From NCBI GenBank assembly GCA_946647665.1, contig CAMPCW010000002.1, positions 1 through 50,721 on the forward strand: a DNA stretch of 50,721 bases. Direction: 5' to 3'. Positions 31,113 to 44,621 of the stretch are shown here, piece after piece. Numbering within the stretch: the first letter of the stretch is position 1; each line of letters opens with the position of its first letter. The translations under genes and the position numbers were made by a program. Source of the stretch: an uncultured Bacillales bacterium. GTDB taxonomy: Bacteria; Bacillota_I; Bacilli_A; RFN20; CAG-826. The notes under the pieces are model-generated. The model ran no database searches and had not been told where the DNA came from. It worked only from the letters and a program-made list of their open reading frames with translations.

Positions 31113-32543
31113 ATGAATCCTATTTTTGACACAAGAGTACAAGAACTCAAATACAAAGTATTGAAAGAAATCGCTAAATCATATTTTAATGGCACATTAT
31201 TAGAAGATTATAATTCTATTCCTACTAAAATTGTTCCTGGCCCAAAACCAACAATGCGTTGCTGTATCTATAAGGAAAGAGCCATTGTTTTAGAAAGAAT
31301 GAAACTTGCTTTAGGTGGATCAAAGGAAATTGATAATGTCATTGAAGTTATTAAAGTAGCGTGTGATGAATGTCCTTTAGGTGGATATGAAGTCACTAAT
31401 AGATGTAGAGGTTGCATTGCCCATAGATGTCAAAAAGCATGTCATAAGGATGCCATTAGTTTTGATGAAGTTACACATGCTGCTCGTATTAATAAAGAAA
31501 AATGTATTAACTGCGGAATGTGCGCTAAAGCATGTCAATATAACGCTATTCAAAATTACTTAAGACCATGTGAACAAGCGTGTAAAGTTAAGGCCATTAG
31601 TATGGGTGAAGATAATGCTGCTCAAATTGATGATGAAAAGTGTGTTCAATGTGGAGCCTGTGTTTATCAATGTCCTTTTGGAGCAATTGTTGATAAATCT
31701 TATATTAAAGAGGCTATCGACATTCTTAAAGAAGGAGATCACGGCAAGAAATTTCCAGTAGTAGCAATTGTTGCTCCTAGTATCGCCACTCAATTTAAGT
31801 ATGCTACGCTAGGTCAAATTGCTAGTGCAATGCATGAACTTGGATTTAGTGAAATCGTTGAGGCTGCTTTAGGAGCAGATATGGTGGCTTATAATGAGGC
31901 AAAAGAATTATCAGAAAAAGGATTTTTAACTTCTAGTTGCTGCCCAACATTTGTTTCTTTTATAAAAAAGAACTTCCCAACTTTAGTGGAGCATATCTCA
32001 TCTAACTTGTCACCAATGGCGAGTATTGCAAAATGGATTAAAGAACATTATCCAACTGCAAAAATCATGTTTATTGGTCCTTGTATTTCTAAAAAACAAG
32101 AAATCAAATTGGAATCTGTTAAACCTTATGTTGATATCACTTTAACTTTTGAAGAACTTCAAGCCTTAATTGACGCTAGAGAAATAGACGCTTCTAAGTT
32201 AGAAGAATCACCGTTTGACAACGCCTCTTACTTTGGAAGAATATTTGCTAGAAGTAGAGGTATATCTGACGCAGTTAGACAGGCACTAAAAGAACAAGAA
32301 ATTGATTTTGATTATAAACCACTCGCAGTTGATGGATTAGATAATATTCGACTTGCATTGCTAAAAGTAAAAGCTGGCAATAGAGACAACAACTTCATTG
32401 AAGGTATGGCTTGTTCAGGTGGATGTATTGGTGGACCTTGCTGTTTGACTCATGAAGTTAGAGATAAAGCAGATGTTGATAAATACGGTATGGAGGCAAA
32501 TAGCCAAACCATTACCGATTCATTAGAAAAACTTAATCGTTAG
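31113..32543 (+). CDS. Monomeric [FeFe] hydrogenase-like protein (group B-like) with N-terminal ferredoxin-type clusters
   Basis: H-cluster motifs TSSCCPTF (L1), GPCISKKQE (L2) and EGMACSGGCIGGP (L3); 4Fe-4S motifs CINCGMCAKAC and CVQCGACVYQCP. Confidence 0.8.
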   Translation: MNPIFDTRVQELKYKVLKEIAKSYFNGTLLEDYNSIPTKIVPGPKPTMRCCIYKERAIVLERMKLALGGSKEIDNVIEVIKVACDECPLGGYEVTNRCRGCIAHRCQKACHKDAISFDEVTHAARINKEKCINCGMCAKACQYNAIQNYLRPCEQACKVKAISMGEDNAAQIDDEKCVQCGACVYQCPFGAIVDKSYIKEAIDILKEGDHGKKFPVVAIVAPSIATQFKYATLGQIASAMHELGFSEIVEAALGADMVAYNEAKELSEKGFLTSSCCPTFVSFIKKNFPTLVEHISSNLSPMASIAKWIKEHYPTAKIMFIGPCISKKQEIKLESVKPYVDITLTFEELQALIDAREIDASKLEESPFDNASYFGRIFARSRGISDAVRQALKEQEIDFDYKPLAVDGLDNIRLALLKVKAGNRDNNFIEGMACSGGCIGGPCCLTHEVRDKADVDKYGMEANSQTITDSLEKLNR

Positions 32544-34994: not shown

Positions 34995-35081
34995 TATTAT
35001 TTCCTCTTGTTTATCTTTCTTATTGTAAATCTTTTTAAAAAAAGAAAAAATAATAAGGTAGTTAAAAGAGGCAAAAATATT

Positions 35082-35642
35082 ATGAAAACATTTAAAGAAC
35101 AAAAATGGATGATTATTGTCTATGGCGTAATCCTATTCGCAATTGGTCTAGTTGACCTTATTTTAAGTATTGTAGATTTGGGTTCCGCGATTAAAGTTGT
35201 CAGTTACTGTATTGCTGGTGGACTTTTTGTTATTGGTTTACTACATATTGTTGCGAATTTGATTAAAGACACAAAATCATTTTTTAAAGGTGCATTAGCA
35301 TTAGGGTGTATTGCTATAGCTTTAGGAGTTGTGTTTATTGTCTACCCTCTTATGCTTGGTAACTTCTTTATCATTTTCTGCGCGGCATTCGTTATTGCTA
35401 TTAGTGCTATCTTCCTTGTTAAAGGATTTATTGGCATTAAATTCAAATATAAAAAGAGTTGGATCTTCTTATATTTCTTATTGGCAACAATTGGAATCAC
35501 TTTAAGCATCCTTGCCTTTGTCTATGAAGGCTCTTCTACAGTCACTCAAATTGTTTATATCACCATGGGTGCTATTGCTATTGTGGTTGGTGTTACCGCT
35601 ATGGTGTACGGCATTAAACTACTTAACAAAAAAGCTGAATAA
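35082..35642 (+). CDS. DUF308/HdeD-like multi-pass membrane protein
   Basis: ATG 35082 (MKTFKEQKWMIIVYG..); six predicted TM helices. Confidence 0.55.
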   Translation: MKTFKEQKWMIIVYGVILFAIGLVDLILSIVDLGSAIKVVSYCIAGGLFVIGLLHIVANLIKDTKSFFKGALALGCIAIALGVVFIVYPLMLGNFFIIFCAAFVIAISAIFLVKGFIGIKFKYKKSWIFLYFLLATIGITLSILAFVYEGSSTVTQIVYITMGAIAIVVGVTAMVYGIKLLNKKAE

Positions 35643-35660
35643 TATAATTGATTAGAATGA

Positions 35661-35688
35661 AAAAAAGACGCGGGAGCCCGCGTCTTTT
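35661..35688. terminator. Bidirectional rho-independent terminator
   Basis: GACGCGG-GAGC-CCGCGTC flanked by A6 and T4. Confidence 0.8.
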
Positions 35689-35695
35689 GTTATAT

Positions 35696-36040
35696 CTAGA
35701 TAACTTTAATGTCTTTTATTGATACATCTTTTCCAGTGACGAGATATGTCTTACAAGAATGACAATATGGACATTCTTTACCGAATTCTGTAGTGGAATA
35801 AGTTTTGCCACAATCTTCGCAATACGTGATACCTTTGATAGTGACAAAGTTGAGTTTACATTCCTTCATGTATTTGGTCTTTTTTATTGACCAATTGAAG
35901 GCATCAACGAAATACTCTTTAACTACTCCTGAAACTTCACCAACTTCTAGAGTAAGTTCCACAACTTTGTTAGCTTTATTTTCTTCGGCAATTTGTTCAA
36001 TTTGTTTAATGACGTGAACGACAATACCTAACTCATGCAT
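35696..36040 (-). CDS. hypA: Hydrogenase/urease-type nickel insertion protein HypA
   Basis: MHELGI N-terminal Ni-binding motif; zinc site CEDCG...CPYCHS; 114 aa; start overlaps the upstream stop by 8 nt. Confidence 0.85.
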   Translation of the reverse strand: MHELGIVVHVIKQIEQIAEENKANKVVELTLEVGEVSGVVKEYFVDAFNWSIKKTKYMKECKLNFVTIKGITYCEDCGKTYSTTEFGKECPYCHSCKTYLVTGKDVSIKDIKVI

Positions 36041-38930
36041 TGACGCTGTTACCTGTATCTGGCATGGTCTTCTTTGCTACTTTGTAGTGCTTCTTCCATG
36101 CTTTGCGTTTCTTTCTCATCATTCTGGCTTCTTTACTACCAGCATTGAACATAATCTTGAACCATCTTGGTACAGCGTATTTGAGTAAGCCAGTAACTTT
36201 GTCTTCTGCAAATCTCATTCTTGAAGCTTTTGGATGATCTCTAACTAGGTGGATAGCGTCAAATTCACACTTGGTGGTACAGATACCACAACCAATACAT
36301 TTGTGTGGATCAACGAAGGCCGCACCACAAGATAAACATCTACCAGTTTCAATCTTCACTTGTTCTTCTGTTAATGTCTTATGTGCGTCTTTGAAGCTAT
36401 TCTTATGGTCGATAGATTCGTCCATACCCGCTTCTTGTCTACCAGCATCATCATAACCAGGAAGAGTAATATCTTCTTTATTAAGTGGAGTAAATCCTCT
36501 CTTATTAAAGGCGATAGTTGGATGAGCATTTGGTCTAACGTGTCTAGCTAAGGCATCAGCAACGGCGTGACCAGCAGCGATAGCATCGATAACAAATTTT
36601 GGTCCAGTAAAGACATCTCCACCTACAAAGATATCATCATCATTAGTTTGATAGGTAACTTTGTCAGCAAATGGATAATTACCGTGCCAGAATTCAACTT
36701 TAGTGCCTTTTAATAAGTCACCCCATTCAATGGCTTGGCCGATAGCGAAGATAATCTTATCAGCTTCCACTGTAATGGTTTCATTTTCATCGTATTTAGG
36801 ATTGAACTTACCATTTTCATCTAAAGTAGACACACATTTTTTAAAGACAATGCCTTTAACTTCACCTTTTTCGTTAACGAGTACTTCTTTTGGTCCCCAA
36901 GAATTATTGATAGTGATATCTTCATCTAAGGTTTCTCTAATTTCTTCATTACTAGCAGGCATATGGTCACGATCTTCTAAGCAATACATAGAAACTGCAC
37001 TTGCTTTTAATCTATGAGCAGTTCTTGCACAGTCAACAGCGACATTACCGCCACCAACGACAACAACTTTGCCTTTAAATTCTTTTTGTTTATCAAGCGC
37101 TTCTCTTAAATAAGAAACAGCGATTTCCGTTCCTTTAGCGGTATCGTTAGCAACACCTGGTCTTCTTCCGCCTTGGCAGCCAATAGCGATATAGAAGGCT
37201 TTATATCCTTCTTTCTTTAAAGACTCGATAGTGACATCTTTACCGACTTCAACACCACACTTGATTTCTACACCAAGCTTTTTGATGACTTCGATTTCAG
37301 CATCGATTACATCTTTTTCTAATTTATAAGCAGGAATGCCATATCTTAACATTCCGCCAGGTTTTTCGTTTTTCTCAAAGACTGTTGGTTTAAAGCCTGC
37401 AACCGCTAAATAATAAGCTGCGGATAAACCAGCTGGACCAGCACCAATAATAGCGATTTTTTCGTCAAAACCACCATATACTGATGCAACAATCTTTTCT
37501 GGAATATATCTATCTTTAGAAGCAATTTCTAAATCAGCAACGAATTTCTTAACAGCGTCAATAGAGACGGCTTGATCGATTTTTCCTCTAGTACATTCGT
37601 CTTCACAACGTTTGTTACAAACTCTACCACAGACTGCTGGGAATGGGTTTTGAGTCTTAATTAAGGCTAAGGCTTCTCTATATCTACCTTCATGGGCCAT
37701 CTTTAAATAGCCTTGAACTGGGACATGAGCTGGACAGGCTACTTTACAAGGAGCTGTACCAGTTGGATAGGTATCGCTAGCTCTAGCGGTATCTCTATAA
37801 TTTTCATCCCAAGCATATTTACCCCAGTGGATTTTATCTGGTAATGGTTGACTTGGATATTTTTGTTCTTTGCCATCGCCCTTACATAATTTTTGTCCGA
37901 GTTTAACGGCTCCAGCAGGACAGTTAGCAACACATTGTCCGCACGCCACACAGTTTGTGGATGTGACTTTAGCGGTATAAGCACTTCTAGATAAGTTAGG
38001 AGTGTTAAATAACATTGATGTTCTTAAAGCGTTACAGATTTTAACGTCACAGTTACAAATATCAAAGATATGGTCTTTGCCATCGATATTAGTAATTTGG
38101 TGAACAAATCCATTTTTCTCAGAGAGTTCAATGATTTCTAATGCTCTTTCTTTAGTAATATAGTGAGCACGTTTGGTTTCAACTGTGTAGTCTGCCATAT
38201 CACCAAGTTGGATACACCAGTCATTAACATCATCAATACAGCCATCTCCTAACATCGCTCTACTTGCTCTACAAGAACAAATACCAGCGGAGATATGGCC
38301 TTCATATTTATTTAACCAGTGAGAAATCTTTTCTACAGAGATGGCTTCTTGATTACCTTCAATAGCCTTTTCTACTGGAATGGTGTGCATACCAATACCG
38401 TTACCACCTTCAGCGATCATTTCAGTAACGCCTGCTAAAGGAATAAAGGTCATTCTTTCAAAGAAGTTAGCAACTGCAGGATTTTTCGCAATTCTATCTA
38501 ATGAGGAGTTCATTAATTCTGCTGAACCAGGAACGAAATAAGATAATCTATATCTTTTAATTTTTGGAGCGTCTTCAATTGGATGTTCATCCGCATAATT
38601 ATCTCCATAGTCATATTCAATAAATCCAATATAAGAAAGTTCGTCTAAAAGTTGTTGAACTTTAGCAGGATCAAATTGACCTTTAAATTTCTTAATTAAA
38701 TCTTCTAAGAGATACCATTTTCTTTGTTTAAGTTTAAGTAAGAAGTTAACTTGATCTTCACTTAAAACCTCTCTTAGTCCCCAATATTCTGGATCAGTAT
38801 TTTTTACTCCAAATAATTTATGTGGGACAACGTCGGTAATCTTCTTACCTAACTTCGCGTAGTTCTTATGGAACTCTTTTTCACCTTGATATTTTGAGGT
38901 GACTTCTGGTTTCTTACATTTCTCTGGCAT
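36033..38930 (-). CDS. 965-aa multi-domain Fe-S flavoprotein: Cys-rich N-terminal region + GltD/NfnB-like FAD/NAD(P) oxidoreductase + C-terminal 2x[4Fe-4S] ferredoxin domain
   Basis: CVACGQCVANCP; CPAHV...CGRVCNKRCEDEC; dinucleotide folds IAIIGAGPAGLSAAYYLA and VVVVGGGNVAVDCA; CLSCG...CIGCGICTTKC. Its ATG overlaps the hypB stop (TAATG). Confidence 0.7.
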   Translation of the reverse strand: MPEKCKKPEVTSKYQGEKEFHKNYAKLGKKITDVVPHKLFGVKNTDPEYWGLREVLSEDQVNFLLKLKQRKWYLLEDLIKKFKGQFDPAKVQQLLDELSYIGFIEYDYGDNYADEHPIEDAPKIKRYRLSYFVPGSAELMNSSLDRIAKNPAVANFFERMTFIPLAGVTEMIAEGGNGIGMHTIPVEKAIEGNQEAISVEKISHWLNKYEGHISAGICSCRASRAMLGDGCIDDVNDWCIQLGDMADYTVETKRAHYITKERALEIIELSEKNGFVHQITNIDGKDHIFDICNCDVKICNALRTSMLFNTPNLSRSAYTAKVTSTNCVACGQCVANCPAGAVKLGQKLCKGDGKEQKYPSQPLPDKIHWGKYAWDENYRDTARASDTYPTGTAPCKVACPAHVPVQGYLKMAHEGRYREALALIKTQNPFPAVCGRVCNKRCEDECTRGKIDQAVSIDAVKKFVADLEIASKDRYIPEKIVASVYGGFDEKIAIIGAGPAGLSAAYYLAVAGFKPTVFEKNEKPGGMLRYGIPAYKLEKDVIDAEIEVIKKLGVEIKCGVEVGKDVTIESLKKEGYKAFYIAIGCQGGRRPGVANDTAKGTEIAVSYLREALDKQKEFKGKVVVVGGGNVAVDCARTAHRLKASAVSMYCLEDRDHMPASNEEIRETLDEDITINNSWGPKEVLVNEKGEVKGIVFKKCVSTLDENGKFNPKYDENETITVEADKIIFAIGQAIEWGDLLKGTKVEFWHGNYPFADKVTYQTNDDDIFVGGDVFTGPKFVIDAIAAGHAVADALARHVRPNAHPTIAFNKRGFTPLNKEDITLPGYDDAGRQEAGMDESIDHKNSFKDAHKTLTEEQVKIETGRCLSCGAAFVDPHKCIGCGICTTKCEFDAIHLVRDHPKASRMRFAEDKVTGLLKYAVPRWFKIMFNAGSKEARMMRKKRKAWKKHYKVAKKTMPDTGNSVNA

Positions 38931-39604
38931 TAGTTATTCCTCCAATTTGAAACTATATCTTTGAAATATTCAGCAACTAATTCGATATTTTTGCCTGTTT
39001 TTGCGCTTATCGGTATTATTGTAGCATTTTTATTACGGTATTTAATATTAGAAATACATTTCTCTATATTAAAGTCGAAATATGGAAGAGCATCGATCTT
39101 ATTTATGAGCACTAGTTTTGATTTTTCAAACACCAGTGGATATTTAATTGGCTTATCATCGCCCTCTGGGACAGAAAGAATCATCATATCCATAGAGGCC
39201 CCGGTATCGAATTCAGCAGGGCAAACAAGATTACCAACATTTTCTAAGAAAATAAGATCAAAATCGTTGAAGTTAATGCCGTCTAATCCAGTTTTAGTCA
39301 TACCAGCATCTAAGTGACACATCCCGTTAGTGTGTAATTGAATTGATGTCACTCCTGTTTCTTTTGCTACATTAACAGCGTCGACATCACTATCGATATC
39401 TGCTTCCATTACCCCAATTTTAAAATCCTTTTTTAGAAGATTTATTAATTTAATTAGAGTAGTGGTCTTGCCTGCTCCTGGCGAAGACATTAAATTCACC
39501 ACAAAAGTATTGTGATCTTTTAAGTAATCTCTTAGTGCATTAGCTTCTAAATCATTATCTGCATAGGCAGAACGATTCAACAGAATAGTTCTTACTTTTT
39601 CCAT
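38930..39604 (-). CDS. hypB: HypB-type G3E metallochaperone GTPase, paralogue 1
   Basis: SSPGAGKTTT P-loop, MCHLDA (CH metal motif), ENVGNLVCPAEFD and NKID. Start ATG 39604 aligns with the paralogue N-terminus and lies 7 nt after a TATAAT box. Confidence 0.8.
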   Translation of the reverse strand: MEKVRTILLNRSAYADNDLEANALRDYLKDHNTFVVNLMSSPGAGKTTTLIKLINLLKKDFKIGVMEADIDSDVDAVNVAKETGVTSIQLHTNGMCHLDAGMTKTGLDGINFNDFDLIFLENVGNLVCPAEFDTGASMDMMILSVPEGDDKPIKYPLVFEKSKLVLINKIDALPYFDFNIEKCISNIKYRNKNATIIPISAKTGKNIELVAEYFKDIVSNWRNN

Positions 39605-39637
39605 CCTCACCATTATATCTAGAAAATTAAAAATATT

Positions 39638-39657
39638 AAAATAAAATATTTTATTTT
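39638..39657. promoter_or_regulatory. Perfect 20-bp palindrome in the divergent hypB-hypB intergenic region (candidate operator)
   Basis: AAAATAAAAT|ATTTTATTTT lies between the -10 boxes of the two divergent genes (minus-strand TATAAT at 39612-39617; TGaTAAGAT at 39659-39667). Confidence 0.45.
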
Positions 39658-39674
39658 GTGATAAGATATTACGC

Positions 39675-40340
39675 ATGGATATTCAAATTGTTAAAGTCAA
39701 AGAAGATATATTAATCGAAAATAATAAGAAAGCAGACTCTTTAAGAGCATTTTTAAAAGAAAAAGGCATTTATTTTATTAATGTCATGGCCTCTCCTGGA
39801 AGCGGCAAGACTACTTTACTAACTCGAGTCATTAACTCTTTAAAATCTAAATATCGTATTGGTGTACTTGAGGCTGATATAGACGGGGATGTTGATGCGG
39901 AAAGAATTAGTCAAAATACCGGTGTTAAAGTCATTCAAGTTCATACTTCAGGAGCGTGTCATTTAACTGCCCAAATGGTGGAAGATGCTTTAAAAGCCTT
40001 TGGGGTGGATGATTTAGATTTAATTATTTTAGAAAATGTTGGTAATTTAGTCTGCCCAGCAGAGTTTGATACAGGCAGTAATATAAACATGATGTTACTA
40101 TCAACTTCTGAAGGACATGATAAACCATTAAAATACCCGCTTATGTTCCAAGTCAGTAAAATCGCGGTTATTTCTAAAATGGATGTCGCTGAAGTTTTTG
40201 ATTTTGACATTAATAAGGCTAAGACAAACATTTTATATAGAAATCCTGAGGCAAAAATCTTTGCCCTTTCCTCTATAAAAAACGAAGGTGTTGATAGCCT
40301 AATTAACTACATCGATGGCCTAATTCAAAAAGGTAAATAA
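39675..40340 (+). CDS. hypB: HypB-type G3E metallochaperone GTPase, paralogue 2
   Basis: ASPGSGKTTL P-loop, ACHLTA, ENVGNLVCPAEFD and SKMD; clearly alignable over most of its length with 38930..39604. Confidence 0.8.
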   Translation: MDIQIVKVKEDILIENNKKADSLRAFLKEKGIYFINVMASPGSGKTTLLTRVINSLKSKYRIGVLEADIDGDVDAERISQNTGVKVIQVHTSGACHLTAQMVEDALKAFGVDDLDLIILENVGNLVCPAEFDTGSNINMMLLSTSEGHDKPLKYPLMFQVSKIAVISKMDVAEVFDFDINKAKTNILYRNPEAKIFALSSIKNEGVDSLINYIDGLIQKGK

Positions 40341-40341
40341 T

Positions 40342-41184
40342 ATGAAATATTATAACGAACAGTCTTTTAGCGGTGAACGCGCAGTATTTATGGAAAAAGA
40401 CGCTACTTTTTATAAGTGTTATTTTCATGATGGAGAGTCTCCATTAAAAGAAAGTAAAGATATTCAAATAATTGAATCAACTTTTCAGTGGAAATATCCA
40501 ATTTGGTATTCAACAAATGTTAAAGTTAGAAATTCAAAATTGTTATATACCGCTAGAAGTGGAATTTGGTATACAAAAAATATTGAAATCACTGACTCAG
40601 TTATTGAAGCGCCAAAAACATTTAGAAGAAGTGAAAATATCTCTTTAATAAATGTTAAATTACCACATGCTGATGAGACACTTTGGAAATGCAAGGGTGT
40701 TAAACTAATTAACGTTGAAGTTAAGGGTGATTATTTTGGTTTTAATTCTGAAGATTTAATAATTGAAAATCTTAATCTAGATGGAAATTATGGCTTCGAT
40801 GGAGCGAAAAACATCAAAATCCATAACTCTATTTTGAAAACTAAAGATGCTTTTTGGAATGTGGAAAATGTTGTAGTTACTGATTCCACAATAATTGGCG
40901 AATATTTAGCGTGGAATAGTAAAAACATTACATTTATTAACTGTAAAATTATTTCTCATCAAGGCTTATGCTATATGGATAATGTCAAAATGGTTAACTG
41001 TGAATTGATTGATTCTGATTTATGTTTTGAATTTTGTTCTCGTTTAGATATTAAAGTTAACAGTGTTATTGATTCGATTAAAAACCCTTATTCTGGAAGA
41101 ATTGAATGTAAAGGCGTAAAAGAATTAATTTTAGAAGAAGATAAAATAGATCCAGCTTTAACGGAGATTGTTATTAATGGCTAA
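40342..41184 (+). CDS. DUF3737-like beta-helix repeat protein
   Basis: Repetitive ..N..I.NS.I... pattern and N-terminus YNEQSFSGERAVF; family assignment is from memory of DUF3737 sequences. Confidence 0.5.
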   Translation: MKYYNEQSFSGERAVFMEKDATFYKCYFHDGESPLKESKDIQIIESTFQWKYPIWYSTNVKVRNSKLLYTARSGIWYTKNIEITDSVIEAPKTFRRSENISLINVKLPHADETLWKCKGVKLINVEVKGDYFGFNSEDLIIENLNLDGNYGFDGAKNIKIHNSILKTKDAFWNVENVVVTDSTIIGEYLAWNSKNITFINCKIISHQGLCYMDNVKMVNCELIDSDLCFEFCSRLDIKVNSVIDSIKNPYSGRIECKGVKELILEEDKIDPALTEIVING

Positions 41185-42337
41185 ATATAATTTCGATACT
41201 TCCATTAATAGAAAAGAAACTTATAGTATCCGCTGGGACGTAAAAGATGGAGAATTACCATTAAATATCGCTGACATGGATTTTTTGGTGATGCCAGAAA
41301 TTGAAAAATCAATTAAATCTAGGGCGGAACAGGCTTGTTATGGTTATACCTATGTTCCTGATTCGTATTATGAAGCTTATATCCGTTGGTGGAGAGATCG
41401 TCACAACACTAGATTAGAAAAAGACTGGTTTGTCTATTCTAAATCTGTAGTGGCATCTATAGATTCTATCTTTAAACATTTAGGTAAACCAAATGATGTA
41501 GTAGTGATGCTTACTCCTGTTTATAATGTGTTTTTTAACTGTATTGAAAACAATAACTTAGTTCTTAAAGAATGTGAATTCATTATAAATGAGGAGTTTA
41601 GTATTGATTGGATAAAATTAGAAACTCAATTGCGTGGAGCAAAATTCTTCTTATTATGTAATCCTCATAATCCGTTAGGAAGAAAATTTACTATCGATGA
41701 ATTAAATAAGATAATTAACCTCTGTAAGCAAAACAATGTTTATGTAATATCCGATGAAATTCATGGCGATATTGATCTAAATAAAGGAAGATATATCTCT
41801 ATTTTAAATAGTGGAGTTACTCGATACGATAAAGTTATTACATTGTTATCTCCTAGCAAGATGTTTAATGTCGCTGGATTACATTCTTCAGTTGCGGTTA
41901 TATCTAATAATAAGTTAAAGGAAATGGTGCAAAATGGGTTTTGGCAAGACGATATTGGTGAGCCAAATTATTTTGCTATCGATCCAATTATTACCGCTTT
42001 TAGCTATGGAGATGAATACGTAGATCAATTAAACTCATATTTAAATGAAAATAGAACATTTTTAATTGAATTTTTGATCAAAAACCTACCAAATTTAAAA
42101 ATTGTCAGTGGAACTTATACATATTTAGTGTGGATTGATATTTCTTGTTATAGTAAAGATTCAAGGCTATTTGCTAAAAGGCTACAAGAGGCTACTGGCT
42201 TAGTTGTCGCTCCTGGAATTAACTATGGAAAATCTGGAGAAGGATATATTAGATTAAATATTGCTACTCCAAGAGATAATTTAATAGATGCATGTAATAG
42301 ATTAATGAATTATATAAGCGAAAATGAGGAGGAATAA
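41177..42337 (+). CDS. MalY/PatB-type PLP-dependent C-S lyase (class I/II aminotransferase fold)
   Basis: FDTSINRKETYSIRWD N-terminus, NPHNPLGR, SDEIHGD and SPSKMFN (PLP Lys) blocks; ATG 41177 overlaps the upstream stop. Confidence 0.8.
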   Translation: MAKYNFDTSINRKETYSIRWDVKDGELPLNIADMDFLVMPEIEKSIKSRAEQACYGYTYVPDSYYEAYIRWWRDRHNTRLEKDWFVYSKSVVASIDSIFKHLGKPNDVVVMLTPVYNVFFNCIENNNLVLKECEFIINEEFSIDWIKLETQLRGAKFFLLCNPHNPLGRKFTIDELNKIINLCKQNNVYVISDEIHGDIDLNKGRYISILNSGVTRYDKVITLLSPSKMFNVAGLHSSVAVISNNKLKEMVQNGFWQDDIGEPNYFAIDPIITAFSYGDEYVDQLNSYLNENRTFLIEFLIKNLPNLKIVSGTYTYLVWIDISCYSKDSRLFAKRLQEATGLVVAPGINYGKSGEGYIRLNIATPRDNLIDACNRLMNYISENEEE

Positions 42338-42340
42338 TCT

Positions 42341-42898
42341 ATGAAAAAGAAAATGAATATTTGCCCAGCAATATTCCCGATGCCTGTAATTTTAATAGCA
42401 ACCTACAACGATGATGGTTCTATCGATGTAATGAATGCGGCTTGGGGATGCGCATTTGACACAAAACAAATTGAACTCAATATTTCTGATTCCCATCGTA
42501 CTACTGAGAATATTAGAAAAAGAAAAGCGTTTACTGTTTCTTTAGCAGATGTTAGCAATATGGTTCCAGCGGATTTTGTTGGTATTGTATCTAGTAAAAA
42601 TGATCCAAAGAAGTTTGAAAAAACTGGTTGGAAAGCTCATAAAAGCGAATTAGTGGACGCGCCAATTTTAGATGACTTACCTTATTCTTTAGAATGTACA
42701 CTTGAATGTTTTAAAGAGGACTATGGAATTATTGGTAATATTGTTCAACTCTTAGTGGATGATAAATTTTTAGATGAAAATGGTAAAGTCAATTTAGAAA
42801 AGATGCAAATCATTTCTTATGATCCTTTTAACCATGGCTATTATGTGGTGGGTAAAAAAGTTGGACAAGCATTTTCAGAAGGAAGAAAAATCAAATAA
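42341..42898 (+). CDS. Flavin reductase-like (flavoredoxin) family protein
   Basis: 185 aa; P.PVILIATY..DG..DVMNAAW pattern typical of the FMN-binding split barrel. Confidence 0.65.
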   Translation: MKKKMNICPAIFPMPVILIATYNDDGSIDVMNAAWGCAFDTKQIELNISDSHRTTENIRKRKAFTVSLADVSNMVPADFVGIVSSKNDPKKFEKTGWKAHKSELVDAPILDDLPYSLECTLECFKEDYGIIGNIVQLLVDDKFLDENGKVNLEKMQIISYDPFNHGYYVVGKKVGQAFSEGRKIK

Positions 42899-44067
42899 TG
42901 GAAGATAACGTTTCCAAATTATTATCTGAATATAAAAAGATATTTGATAGTGACGCTGAACACGTTTTTTCCTGTGGTGGCCGCTTTGAAATCTTGGGCA
43001 ATCATACAGATCATAACCACGGTCTTTGTTTAGCCAGTGCTTGTAATTTAGAAATTGTTGCTTCGGTTAGAAAAAACGATTCTAATAAAGTCTTGTTTCA
43101 ATCCCTAGGTTTTGAGCTAGATGAAGTAGATTTATGTGATTTAAACGCGAATAAAAAAGAATACGCAACTTCAAAAGGATTAATTAGAGGTGTCGCTGCT
43201 TATTTAAAAGAACACGGCTATAAAATAGGAGGATTTAACGCCTATAGCGAATCTTCTATTTTTAAAGGAGCAGGTGTATCTAGCTCTGCAGCTTTTGAAC
43301 TTTTAGTAGGTTATATATTTAACGTTTTATATAATAACGGTAAAATCTCAAAATTGGAGTTGTGTAAAGCTGGTAAATACGCAGAAAATGAATATTTTGG
43401 AAAGAAAAGTGGTCTTTTGGACCAAATTGGAGTTGGCTTTGGTGGAGTTGTAAAAATTGATTTTAAAAATATCAATGACCCATTTGTTGAACAAATCGAA
43501 TTCCCATTTAAAGATTTACACTTTGTTTTAGTAAATACTGGTGGAGATCATTCGTCTCTCAGTGATTTATATTCTTCTATCCCTAGTGATATGTATGAAG
43601 CCGCAAAAGCGTGTGGACATAACTTTTTAGTCGAAGGGTCTATGGAAGAAGTTGAAGCTCATAAAAGTGAGATGAGTGAATCATCTTACTTAAGAGCGAA
43701 ACATTATTATGGAGAAAACGATAGAGTAAGAAATGCCTTTAAGGCTTTACAAGATAATAACCAAGAAATGTTCTTGAAAATGATTAACGAATCTAGAGAG
43801 TCTTCCTCTAAATATTTAAAAAATATGATGGTGGAATCTAACTACAAAGGTTCACCATTAGAAGCTTGTGATTTATTAATGAAATATAGCGATAATCAAG
43901 GGGCTGTCAAAATTAATGGTGGTGGCTTTGCAGGAAGCGTTATTGCTTTAGTCCCTACTTCTAAATTAGAAAAAGTTTTAGAAAAAATGAAAGAACATTA
44001 CGGAGAAAATAATGTTCAAGAAATATTTGTTAGGGACAGTGGACCAAAAGTTATTTATAATAAGTAA
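42898..44067 (+). CDS. Galactokinase-family GHMP kinase
   Basis: [16 protein letters not shown] galactokinase signature-like block, GHMP motif [11 protein letters not shown], and [12 protein letters not shown] near the C-terminus. Confidence 0.75.
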
Positions 44068-44081
44068 AGGAGAAAAAATAT

Positions 44082-44621
44082 ATGGAATTAAAAGGTAGTC
44101 GTACTGAGAAAAATTTAGAAATGGCATTTGCAGGTGAAAGCCAAGCAAGAAATAAGTATACTTATTTTGCCTCAAAAGCTAAAAAAGAAGGATATGAACA
44201 AATCGCTGCTATTTTCTTAGAAACAGCAGATAACGAAAAAGAACACGCGGAATTATGGTTTAAATACCTTCATGGTGGTGCTGTTCCTACTACTGAAGAA
44301 AACTTAAAAGCTGCTGCTGAAGGTGAAAACTTTGAGTGGACTGATATGTATAAAGAAATGGCAAAAGTCGCTAGAGAAGAAGGGTTTACTGAAATTGCTT
44401 GTAAATTCGAATTAGTCGCTAAAATTGAAAAAGAACACGAAGAAAGATATCTTGCTTTACTTGAAAAAGTGAAATCCAATAAAGTCTTTGTTAGTGATGA
44501 TGTCGTAATTTGGAAATGCCGTAACTGCGGACATATCCATGTTGGAAAAGAAGCTCCTGAGCTCTGCCCAACATGTAAACATCCAAAAAGCTATTTTGAA
44601 AGACAAGCTAAAAATTATTAA
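44082..44621 (+). CDS. rbr: Rubrerythrin
   Basis: Diiron ExxH helices ([16 protein letters not shown]) and a C-terminal rubredoxin-like CRNCG...CPTC. Confidence 0.9.

Follow-up and report, generated by a model that had tools for sequence, protein, structure and literature searches.

A putative IsrA-family Fe-S flavoprotein encoded between hypB and hypA in an uncultured Bacillales bacterium of the rumen

Genes and features of the locus

The window analysed here, a 50,721-nt stretch of an uncultured Bacillales bacterium (contig CAMPCW010000002.1 of assembly GCA_946647665.1), carries a minus-strand operon in which three genes follow one another without spacers in the order hypB, oxidoreductase, hypA (Table 1). 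The oxidoreductase is a large Fe-S flavoprotein that very probably, judged from its sequence, belongs to the IsrA ("clade 9") family and is served by a dedicated pair of HypA and HypB chaperones. In line with the original prediction, whose coordinates all proved correct on re-derivation, the three genes are translationally coupled. Specifically, hypB ends and the oxidoreductase begins within one TAATG (38932-38928), and the oxidoreductase stop overlaps the hypA start by 8 nt (ATGCATGA, 36040-36033). The most plausible hypB start lies at 39604, where a GGTGAGG ribosome-binding site is followed by ATG and a protein beginning MEKVRT. The promoter-like site TTAATA-16-TATAAT is the top-scoring sigma-70-like match of the region (10/12), as a consensus match only.

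Table 1. Features of the operon, of its encoded reductase and of the divergent hypB paralogue (positions in the window)
Feature	Position	Strand	Details and basis
hypB	38930-39604	-	224 aa; G3E GTPase nickel chaperone by ORF (open reading frame) and family models
Putative IsrA-family Fe-S flavoprotein reductase	36033-38930	-	965 aa; domains, alignment, architecture
N-terminal domain	37986-38930	-	residues 1-315; winged-helix-like part, then Cys-rich part
Single ferredoxin-type [4Fe-4S] motif, CxxCxxCxxxCP	37884-37970	-	C327, C330, C333, C337, plus C349
NfnB/GltD-like electron-input module	36531-37793	-	residues ~380-800; two [4Fe-4S] (Fer4_20), FAD and NAD(P)H sites
C-terminal Fe-S motif	36231-36353	-	C865, C868, C878, C881, C884, C888; Fer4 match at residues 872-893
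hypA	35696-36040	-	114 aa; PF01155
Second hypB paralogue	39675-40340	+	221 aa; TIGR00073, 240 bits; divergent from the operon
Promoter-like site	39612-39639	-	just 5' of the hypB ribosome-binding site
Intrinsic terminator hairpin	35663-35688	-	3' of hypA; 11-bp stem with 6 GC pairs, then a T run

Family models bear out the identities first proposed for both chaperones. HypA matches PF01155 at 1.9e-28 (99 bits, cut-off 28.9), while on TIGR00100 it scores 75 bits, under that model's cut-off of 88; its N-terminus reads MHELG, and a zinc site is formed by C74xxC77 and C90xxC93. HypB reaches 212 bits on TIGR00073 (cut-off 121), and the motifs GAGKTT, GMCH, ENVGNLVCP and NKID are read from its sequence, with a CH...C metal site in the G-domain. 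The second hypB paralogue, which the original prediction had passed over, starts 70 nt from the first on the opposite strand, and the two are ~47-49% identical. As had been stated, Pfam recognises no [NiFe]-hydrogenase, urease or carbon monoxide dehydrogenase (CODH) among the window's remaining 36 long ORFs, and the same scan finds neither hypCDEF nor a hydrogenase large subunit; these ORFs are housekeeping genes and one [FeFe]-hydrogenase-like gene.

The predicted GltD/NfnB-like core of the reductase is readily recognised at residues 380-800 as Fer4_20 (1.2e-21) and Pyr_redox_2 (4.6e-26) in Pfam, and its relatives in the PDB are the NfnB-type modules 9bov, 8oh5, 9n5u and 5jca, with E-values down to 2.5e-92. 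The best NCBIfam match, PRK12771, reaches 444.9 bits against a cut-off of 516, every NfnB/GltD equivalog model lies far under its cut-off, and no NfnA or GltB partner gene adjoins the oxidoreductase. The ferredoxin-type motif is positioned between this module and a site of six cysteines (Cys6) in the N-terminal domain. At the C-terminus, the 2x[4Fe-4S] domain originally proposed has to be revised, as this motif holds six invariant cysteines rather than eight, all six present in 71/71 full-length homologues, and one cluster fits better.

Residues 1-315 have no Pfam match, even at E=10. An AlphaFold2 (AF2) model of residues 1-400, built from a 50-sequence alignment, reaches a pTM of 0.77, and across residues 10-310 its pLDDT is mostly higher than 80; a first model from 15 sequences (pLDDT 57) was discarded as too poor. 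Searched against the PDB with Foldseek, both models find MarR-like winged-helix proteins and nothing else, with matches over the first ~130 residues, and a profile search of PDB sequences matches only the ferredoxin motif, with nothing N-terminal of residue ~302; the Cys-rich part is therefore a domain without a solved relative. The profile search gives no link of the N-terminal domain to acetyl-CoA synthase (ACS), CODH, HdrB or ferredoxin:thioredoxin reductase.

Within this domain, Cys6 consists of two CxC motifs placed 74 residues apart (C218/C220 and C292/C294) together with C239 and C299. All Cys6 residues, H182 and H277 are invariant in the 71 full-length homologues, including paralogues only ~50% identical, and so are the ferredoxin cysteines 327, 330, 333 and 337 and C349. 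In a wider alignment reaching down to 25% identity, the N-terminal invariants are Y49, G102, C218, C220, R221, C239, E271, G274, H277, C292, N293, C294 and C299, which are concentrated in the Cys-rich part rather than the winged helix. We propose that the N-terminal domain is the catalytic and nickel site. Alternatively, the protein could be a mere Nfn-like NAD(P)H:ferredoxin electron-transfer enzyme whose winged-helix N-terminal domain is regulatory and not catalytic, a reading to which the NfnB-like core and the MarR-like resemblance of the first ~130 residues both lend some colour. It is nevertheless very unlikely, since the protein reaches the curated cut-off of no NfnB/GltD-type NCBIfam model, has no adjacent NfnA-like partner and concentrates its invariant residues in the Cys-rich part. 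Additionally, IsrA itself is the protein most strongly induced by isoprene (PMC10134865), and linkage to a substrate-making isomerase in 29 loci favours a catalytic role.

Conservation of the gene triplet and family membership

One genome per GTDB species was scanned with an alignment of the N-terminal domain as query, which yields at least 592 genomes with a relative. The window proteins were mapped by tblastn onto the best 80 loci and two metagenome contigs (82 loci), and adjacency was counted in the 69 loci with enough flanking DNA on both sides. In these, hypA lies directly downstream of the reductase in 61/69 and hypB directly upstream in 50/69, the full hypB-oxidoreductase-hypA triplet is present in 50/69, and neither chaperone gene is nearby in 8/69. 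The closest relative among the best 80 loci is 99% identical and comes from a rumen "Bacillales"/Erysipelotrichaceae metagenome-assembled genome, whereas the others belong to Erysipelotrichaceae, Lachnospiraceae, Oscillospiraceae/Ruminococcaceae, Christensenellales, Acutalibacteraceae, Gemmiger, Eubacterium sp. CAG:180 and Olsenella/Tractidigestivibacter (Coriobacteriia), mostly from rumen or gut. Linkage to the chaperone genes spans at least three classes. All-against-all clustering of the ORFs leaves four widely recurring neighbour families, namely the reductase, hypA, hypB and a fatty-acid isomerase; no conserved nickel transporter appears in this neighbourhood clustering. Because the other neighbours vary across loci, the triplet behaves as a functional unit and not as inherited synteny, and the arrangement is more than chance. 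Taken together, conservation of the triplet, the intact motifs of HypA and HypB and the invariant Cys6 support the idea, raised in the original prediction, that the chaperones act on the linked oxidoreductase.

The motifs of the linked chaperones bear on which metal they carry. An MHE N-terminus is present in 67/68 hypA genes linked to homologues and the zinc Cys4 site (CxxC...CxxC) in 68/68, and in the linked HypB proteins the P-loop, CH, ENVGNLxCP and NKxD motifs are all retained. A CxxCGC motif at the N-terminus and a His-rich tract are missing from every one of these HypB proteins, both window copies included, which are therefore of type 1, like the H. pylori protein. It could be argued that such paralogues deliver Zn, Fe or Co, or help to assemble an all-iron Fe-S cluster at Cys6, leaving the enzyme free of nickel. 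In keeping with that alternative, G3E GTPases (CobW/UreG/HypB/MeaB) serve several metals, neither HypB copy carries the high-affinity nickel motif at its N-terminus or a His-rich tract, and no similar nickel site is found by PDB profile search or Foldseek. In the published model, moreover, the site is in the first place a Cys6 Fe-S cluster (PMC10134865). We consider the alternative unlikely, however, since MHE, the nickel site of characterised HypA proteins, is kept in all but one of the linked copies, HypB retains the CH...C used for nickel in H. pylori-type HypB, and both chaperones reach curated HypA/HypB models. Nickel, placed at Cys6, is on this sequence evidence slightly favoured as the delivered metal.

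The family has a described member. Kronen et al. (2023, mSystems) reported IsrA as a putative isoprene reductase of Acetobacterium wieringae ISORED-2, encoded in an isoprene-induced five-gene operon whose products are IsrA (901 aa, a "FAD-dependent oxidoreductase"), a pair of HypA proteins, a single HypB and a ferredoxin; isrA, hypA and hypB were all induced by isoprene (PMC10134865). The first ~270 residues of IsrA have no predictable domain, and its CxC motifs at 180/182 and 254/256 fall in a Cys6 site named "cluster V", followed by a [4Fe-4S] motif at 289-300, Fer4_20, the FAD/NAD(P) domain and a further [4Fe-4S] motif at 848-877 (PMC10134865). The same study assigned 988 homologues to "clade 9", spread over Firmicutes, Tenericutes, Actinobacteria and further phyla, with HypA as neighbour in 73% and HypB in 56%, and found the A. 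wieringae genome to be without [NiFe]-hydrogenase and hypCDEF, its other nickel enzymes having their own maturases (PMC10134865). Its authors proposed that HypAB put nickel into cluster V, which they likened to the ACS A-cluster (PMC10134865). In a Pelotomaculum schinkii enrichment with isoprene, transcripts of hypA rose ~370-fold and those of hypB ~585-fold; two 2026 Pelotomaculum preprints describe hypA and hypB as strongly induced by isoprene and keep nickel in IsrA as a hypothesis.

Our adjacency counts agree with the published co-occurrence of 0.73 and 0.56. Additionally, every full-length family representative retrieved shows the spacing CxC-74-CxC-35-CxxCxxCxxxCP, equal to that of IsrA at 180/254/289, and the window protein aligns end to end with nine representatives (883-945 aa) over 790-920 residues at 42-51% identity, with one outlier at 35%. 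In the library of 1.8 billion proteins from which these representatives come, the family makes up 187 clusters at 50% identity (E<=1e-30).

Among the homologues listed for a query of the first 385 residues, none reaches 670 aa and all are fragments or frameshifted products, one group being 564-aa reductase products from many Logan assemblies. The split copies carry frameshifts at various places around residues ~520-650, such as a 5-nt deletion in L001 (~11690-11705) and, in L002 (~11700-11730), an A7 run where the frame needs A6. Programmed frameshifting and selenocysteine were considered and rejected, as the breaks differ in position and 71 of the ~76 genome copies are intact. Because most genome copies are intact, the frameshifted ones may be pseudogenes, strain variants or assembly errors.

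Nickel delivery and the proposed substrate

Gene structure, domain content, the invariance of Cys6, linkage to hypA and hypB and the metal motifs of the chaperones are read directly from the sequence. Upon these observations, we infer an electron-flow direction, a metal and a substrate. NAD(P)H would reduce the FAD of the NfnB-like module, and electrons would then travel by way of both Fer4_20 clusters and the lone ferredoxin cluster to Cys6 in the N-terminal domain, where the substrate would be reduced. During maturation, nickel would be loaded into or beside the Cys6 cluster by HypB, in a GTP-dependent manner, and HypA, independently of any hydrogenase. The substrate would be a hydrophobic molecule with an unactivated or conjugated C=C bond, namely isoprene in Acetobacterium. 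For members from the rumen and gut, the most plausible candidate is a conjugated fatty-acid diene, for example conjugated linoleic acid (CLA). As a whole, the reading of the locus as an IsrA-family reductase operon with its own HypB and HypA, nickel delivery and a C=C substrate has in our estimate a probability of roughly 0.6.

The recurring isomerase is what points to a fatty-acid substrate. It is a flavoprotein of ~460-485 aa that matches PDB 2B9W with E=3e-107, and that entry, whose identity was checked, is the polyunsaturated fatty-acid isomerase of Propionibacterium acnes, an enzyme that converts linoleic acid to t10,c12-CLA. In 29/82 loci (e.g. L043 7159-13211, L058, L060, L075, L056 and L012) a homologue is encoded no more than 10 kb from the reductase, and in ~19 of these 29 its distance to hypB or the reductase is under 100 nt. 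The gene order is hypB2, isomerase, hypB1, reductase, hypA in many Clostridia and isomerase, reductase, hypA in L058, L060 and L075; the isomerase gene is divergent or downstream in Erysipelotrichaceae and directly upstream of hypB in a Tractidigestivibacter genome. A larger cluster, found in L027 (3109-16825), L059, L065 and partly L032, joins an acyl-ACP thioesterase, an AMP-dependent ligase, the isomerase homologue, a CrtI-like flavoprotein, an FNR-like 2Fe-2S reductase, an IsrA-like reductase, hypA and a second IsrA-like paralogue; the tandem paralogues are ~50% identical overall and 44% in the N-terminal domain, and hypB is absent.

Isoprene and CLA are both conjugated dienes, and CLA reduction is chemically parallel to isoprene reduction. 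Given this parallel and the isomerase adjacency, diene reduction is the simplest reading for many rumen and gut members, and the linkage suggests that these reduce conjugated fatty-acid dienes. For the window gene the case rests only on 70-80% identity to linked copies, the window itself being without an isomerase, and reduction of conjugated fatty acids by this particular enzyme is a tentative proposal with the odds clearly against it. Slightly less likely again is the full proposal that rumen and gut members, the window enzyme included, are HypA/HypB-matured, nickel-dependent conjugated-diene reductases converting t10,c12- or c9,t11-CLA to trans-18:1; if it is true, such members would supply the "CLA reductase" step in ruminal biohydrogenation, for which no gene is known to date. 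No paper in the literature searched links an IsrA-like reductase with a fatty-acid isomerase.

Several points weigh against our reading of the locus. Its assignment to the IsrA family depends on architecture, motif spacing and family representatives and not on an alignment to VUZ27132.1, and the literature searched contains no biochemical characterisation or metal analysis of any family member. Neither the PDB profile search nor Foldseek detects a likeness of the site to any known nickel site. The 8 loci without nearby hypA or hypB still keep the Cys6 site, and the 50-kb window holds no isomerase and no lipid gene near the operon. Finally, the search for other nickel enzymes covers the 50.7-kb window only. 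The last point bears on a further explanation, namely that the client of the chaperones is a nickel enzyme with its gene in another part of the genome (a hydrogenase, urease, CODH/ACS, lactate racemase or glyoxalase), their place beside the reductase being a historical accident; some organisms with IsrA homologues, e.g. Pelotomaculum, do possess [NiFe]-hydrogenases. This explanation is nonetheless highly improbable, since the trio is kept with overlapping or near-abutting genes in 50 of the 69 species-level genomes from several classes while other neighbours vary, and since hypCDEF is absent from the window. Furthermore, A. wieringae has the same arrangement with no [NiFe]-hydrogenase and with separate maturases for its other nickel enzymes.

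If nickel is confirmed at Cys6, an IsrA-family reductase with its own HypA and HypB would represent a further class of nickel enzyme and the first HypAB client outside hydrogenase and urease, and it would carry out a hard reaction, the reduction of an unactivated or merely conjugated C=C bond by electrons at the level of NAD(P)H. Family members abound in anaerobes of the rumen and gut, with the at least 592 species genomes given above. Ruminal biohydrogenation sets the trans-fat and CLA content of milk and meat, and to our knowledge its reductase genes have not yet been identified; if the isomerase link holds, the family offers a concrete gene for its reductive steps. The window itself provides one ordinary family member and no new principle.

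Neighbouring genes and comparison with known systems

The second hypB, which recurs within 10 kb in 34/69 related loci, is separated from the first by a 70-nt divergent intergenic region that contains a perfect 20-bp palindrome, AAAATAAAATATTTTATTTT, at 39638-39657. At 39656-39663, ~10-25 nt from the hypB2 start, is the motif TATCACAA, which recurs in the equivalent region of ~10 related loci and could be an extended -10 element of a near-leaderless hypB2 transcript or an operator. On the plus strand, hypB2 is followed by genes for a DUF3737 protein (40342-41184), a PatB-type C-S lyase (41168-42337), a flavin-reductase-like protein (42341-42898) and a GHMP/galactokinase-like protein (42898-44067), with gaps of 0-3 nt or overlaps from hypB2 to the galactokinase gene; a rubrerythrin gene (44082-44621, +) after a 14-nt gap ends the hypB2-led run (39675-44621). 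A functional tie of the DUF3737, PatB lyase and flavin-reductase-like genes to the system was considered and set aside, because they are syntenic in 6-7 close relatives only. The hypB2-DUF3737-PatB order is, for the same reason, probably lineage synteny from shared ancestry, which gives no explanation for a HypB coupled directly to DUF3737.

Beyond hypA, at a distance of ~3 kb, lies the [FeFe]-hydrogenase-like gene (31113-32543, +) with Fe_hyd_lg_C and ferredoxin domains; hydrogenases of the [FeFe] type do not use nickel. A gene convergent to hypA (35007-35642, +) encodes a predicted membrane protein of 211 aa with no Pfam match, which is conserved in the closest relatives only and differs from DUF5692, a domain reported as a frequent neighbour of IsrA homologues. 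An Rfam scan of the window has no match, hence no NiCo or other riboswitch.

The electron-input half of the window protein (residues ~380-800) resembles NfnB/GltD/DsrL-type proteins (5jca_L of NfnI; the 9bov_A module) in its two-[4Fe-4S] Fer4_20 domain and its FAD and NAD(P)H Rossmann domains. Distinct from these, it carries an extra N-terminal domain of ~370 aa and a C-terminal Fe-S motif, has no NfnA/GltB partner, scores under all curated cut-offs and is flanked by nickel chaperones. The chaperones, in turn, are like the HypA and HypB that serve [NiFe]-hydrogenase, and the urease of Helicobacter pylori, with an MHE plus zinc Cys4 HypA and a type-1 G3E HypB with CH...C, and here too their genes are co-transcribed with the presumed client. 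Unlike in the hydrogenase systems, that presumed client is an Fe-S flavoprotein, the window is without hypCDEF, hydrogenase large subunit and urease, and two HypB paralogues accompany one HypA. A further parallel is the ACS A-cluster (Ni-Ni-[4Fe-4S], with a Cys-Gly-Cys nickel site), which shares a cysteine-only site and CxC motifs beside an Fe-S chain, whereas the window N-terminal domain has no sequence or fold similarity to ACS by PDB profile search and Foldseek. Maturation of ACS, moreover, depends on AcsF/CooC-type ATPases and not on HypAB.

The closest counterpart is IsrA. Both proteins are single polypeptides of ~900 aa in which an uncharacterised N-terminal domain with CxC motifs 74 apart within Cys6 is followed, 35 residues after the second CxC, by a [4Fe-4S] motif, then by the NfnB-like Fer4_20 and FAD/NAD(P) domains and a C-terminal Fe-S motif; in both, hypA and hypB are immediate neighbours, and family members are found in strict anaerobes, some of these without [NiFe]-hydrogenase. 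The window protein has an N-terminus 38 residues longer, and its motifs are offset by a constant +38 (CxC 218/220 and 292/294; Fer4 327). In contrast to the isr operon, the window has neither the extra gene for a 350-aa ferredoxin resembling the IsrA N-terminus nor a second hypA, and is thus a family homologue and not an isr operon; it has, on the other hand, the second hypB that the isr operon lacks. Since the host is a rumen Erysipelotrichaceae-like bacterium, unlike A. wieringae, isoprene is not an obvious substrate of the window enzyme. Neither the arrangement nor the nickel-delivery proposal is new, as both were published in 2023 (PMC10134865), and the window protein is an ordinary representative of a family that is known but still uncharacterised. 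What this analysis adds to the comparison is an independent test of conservation, the second HypB paralogue and the linkage to a fatty-acid isomerase.

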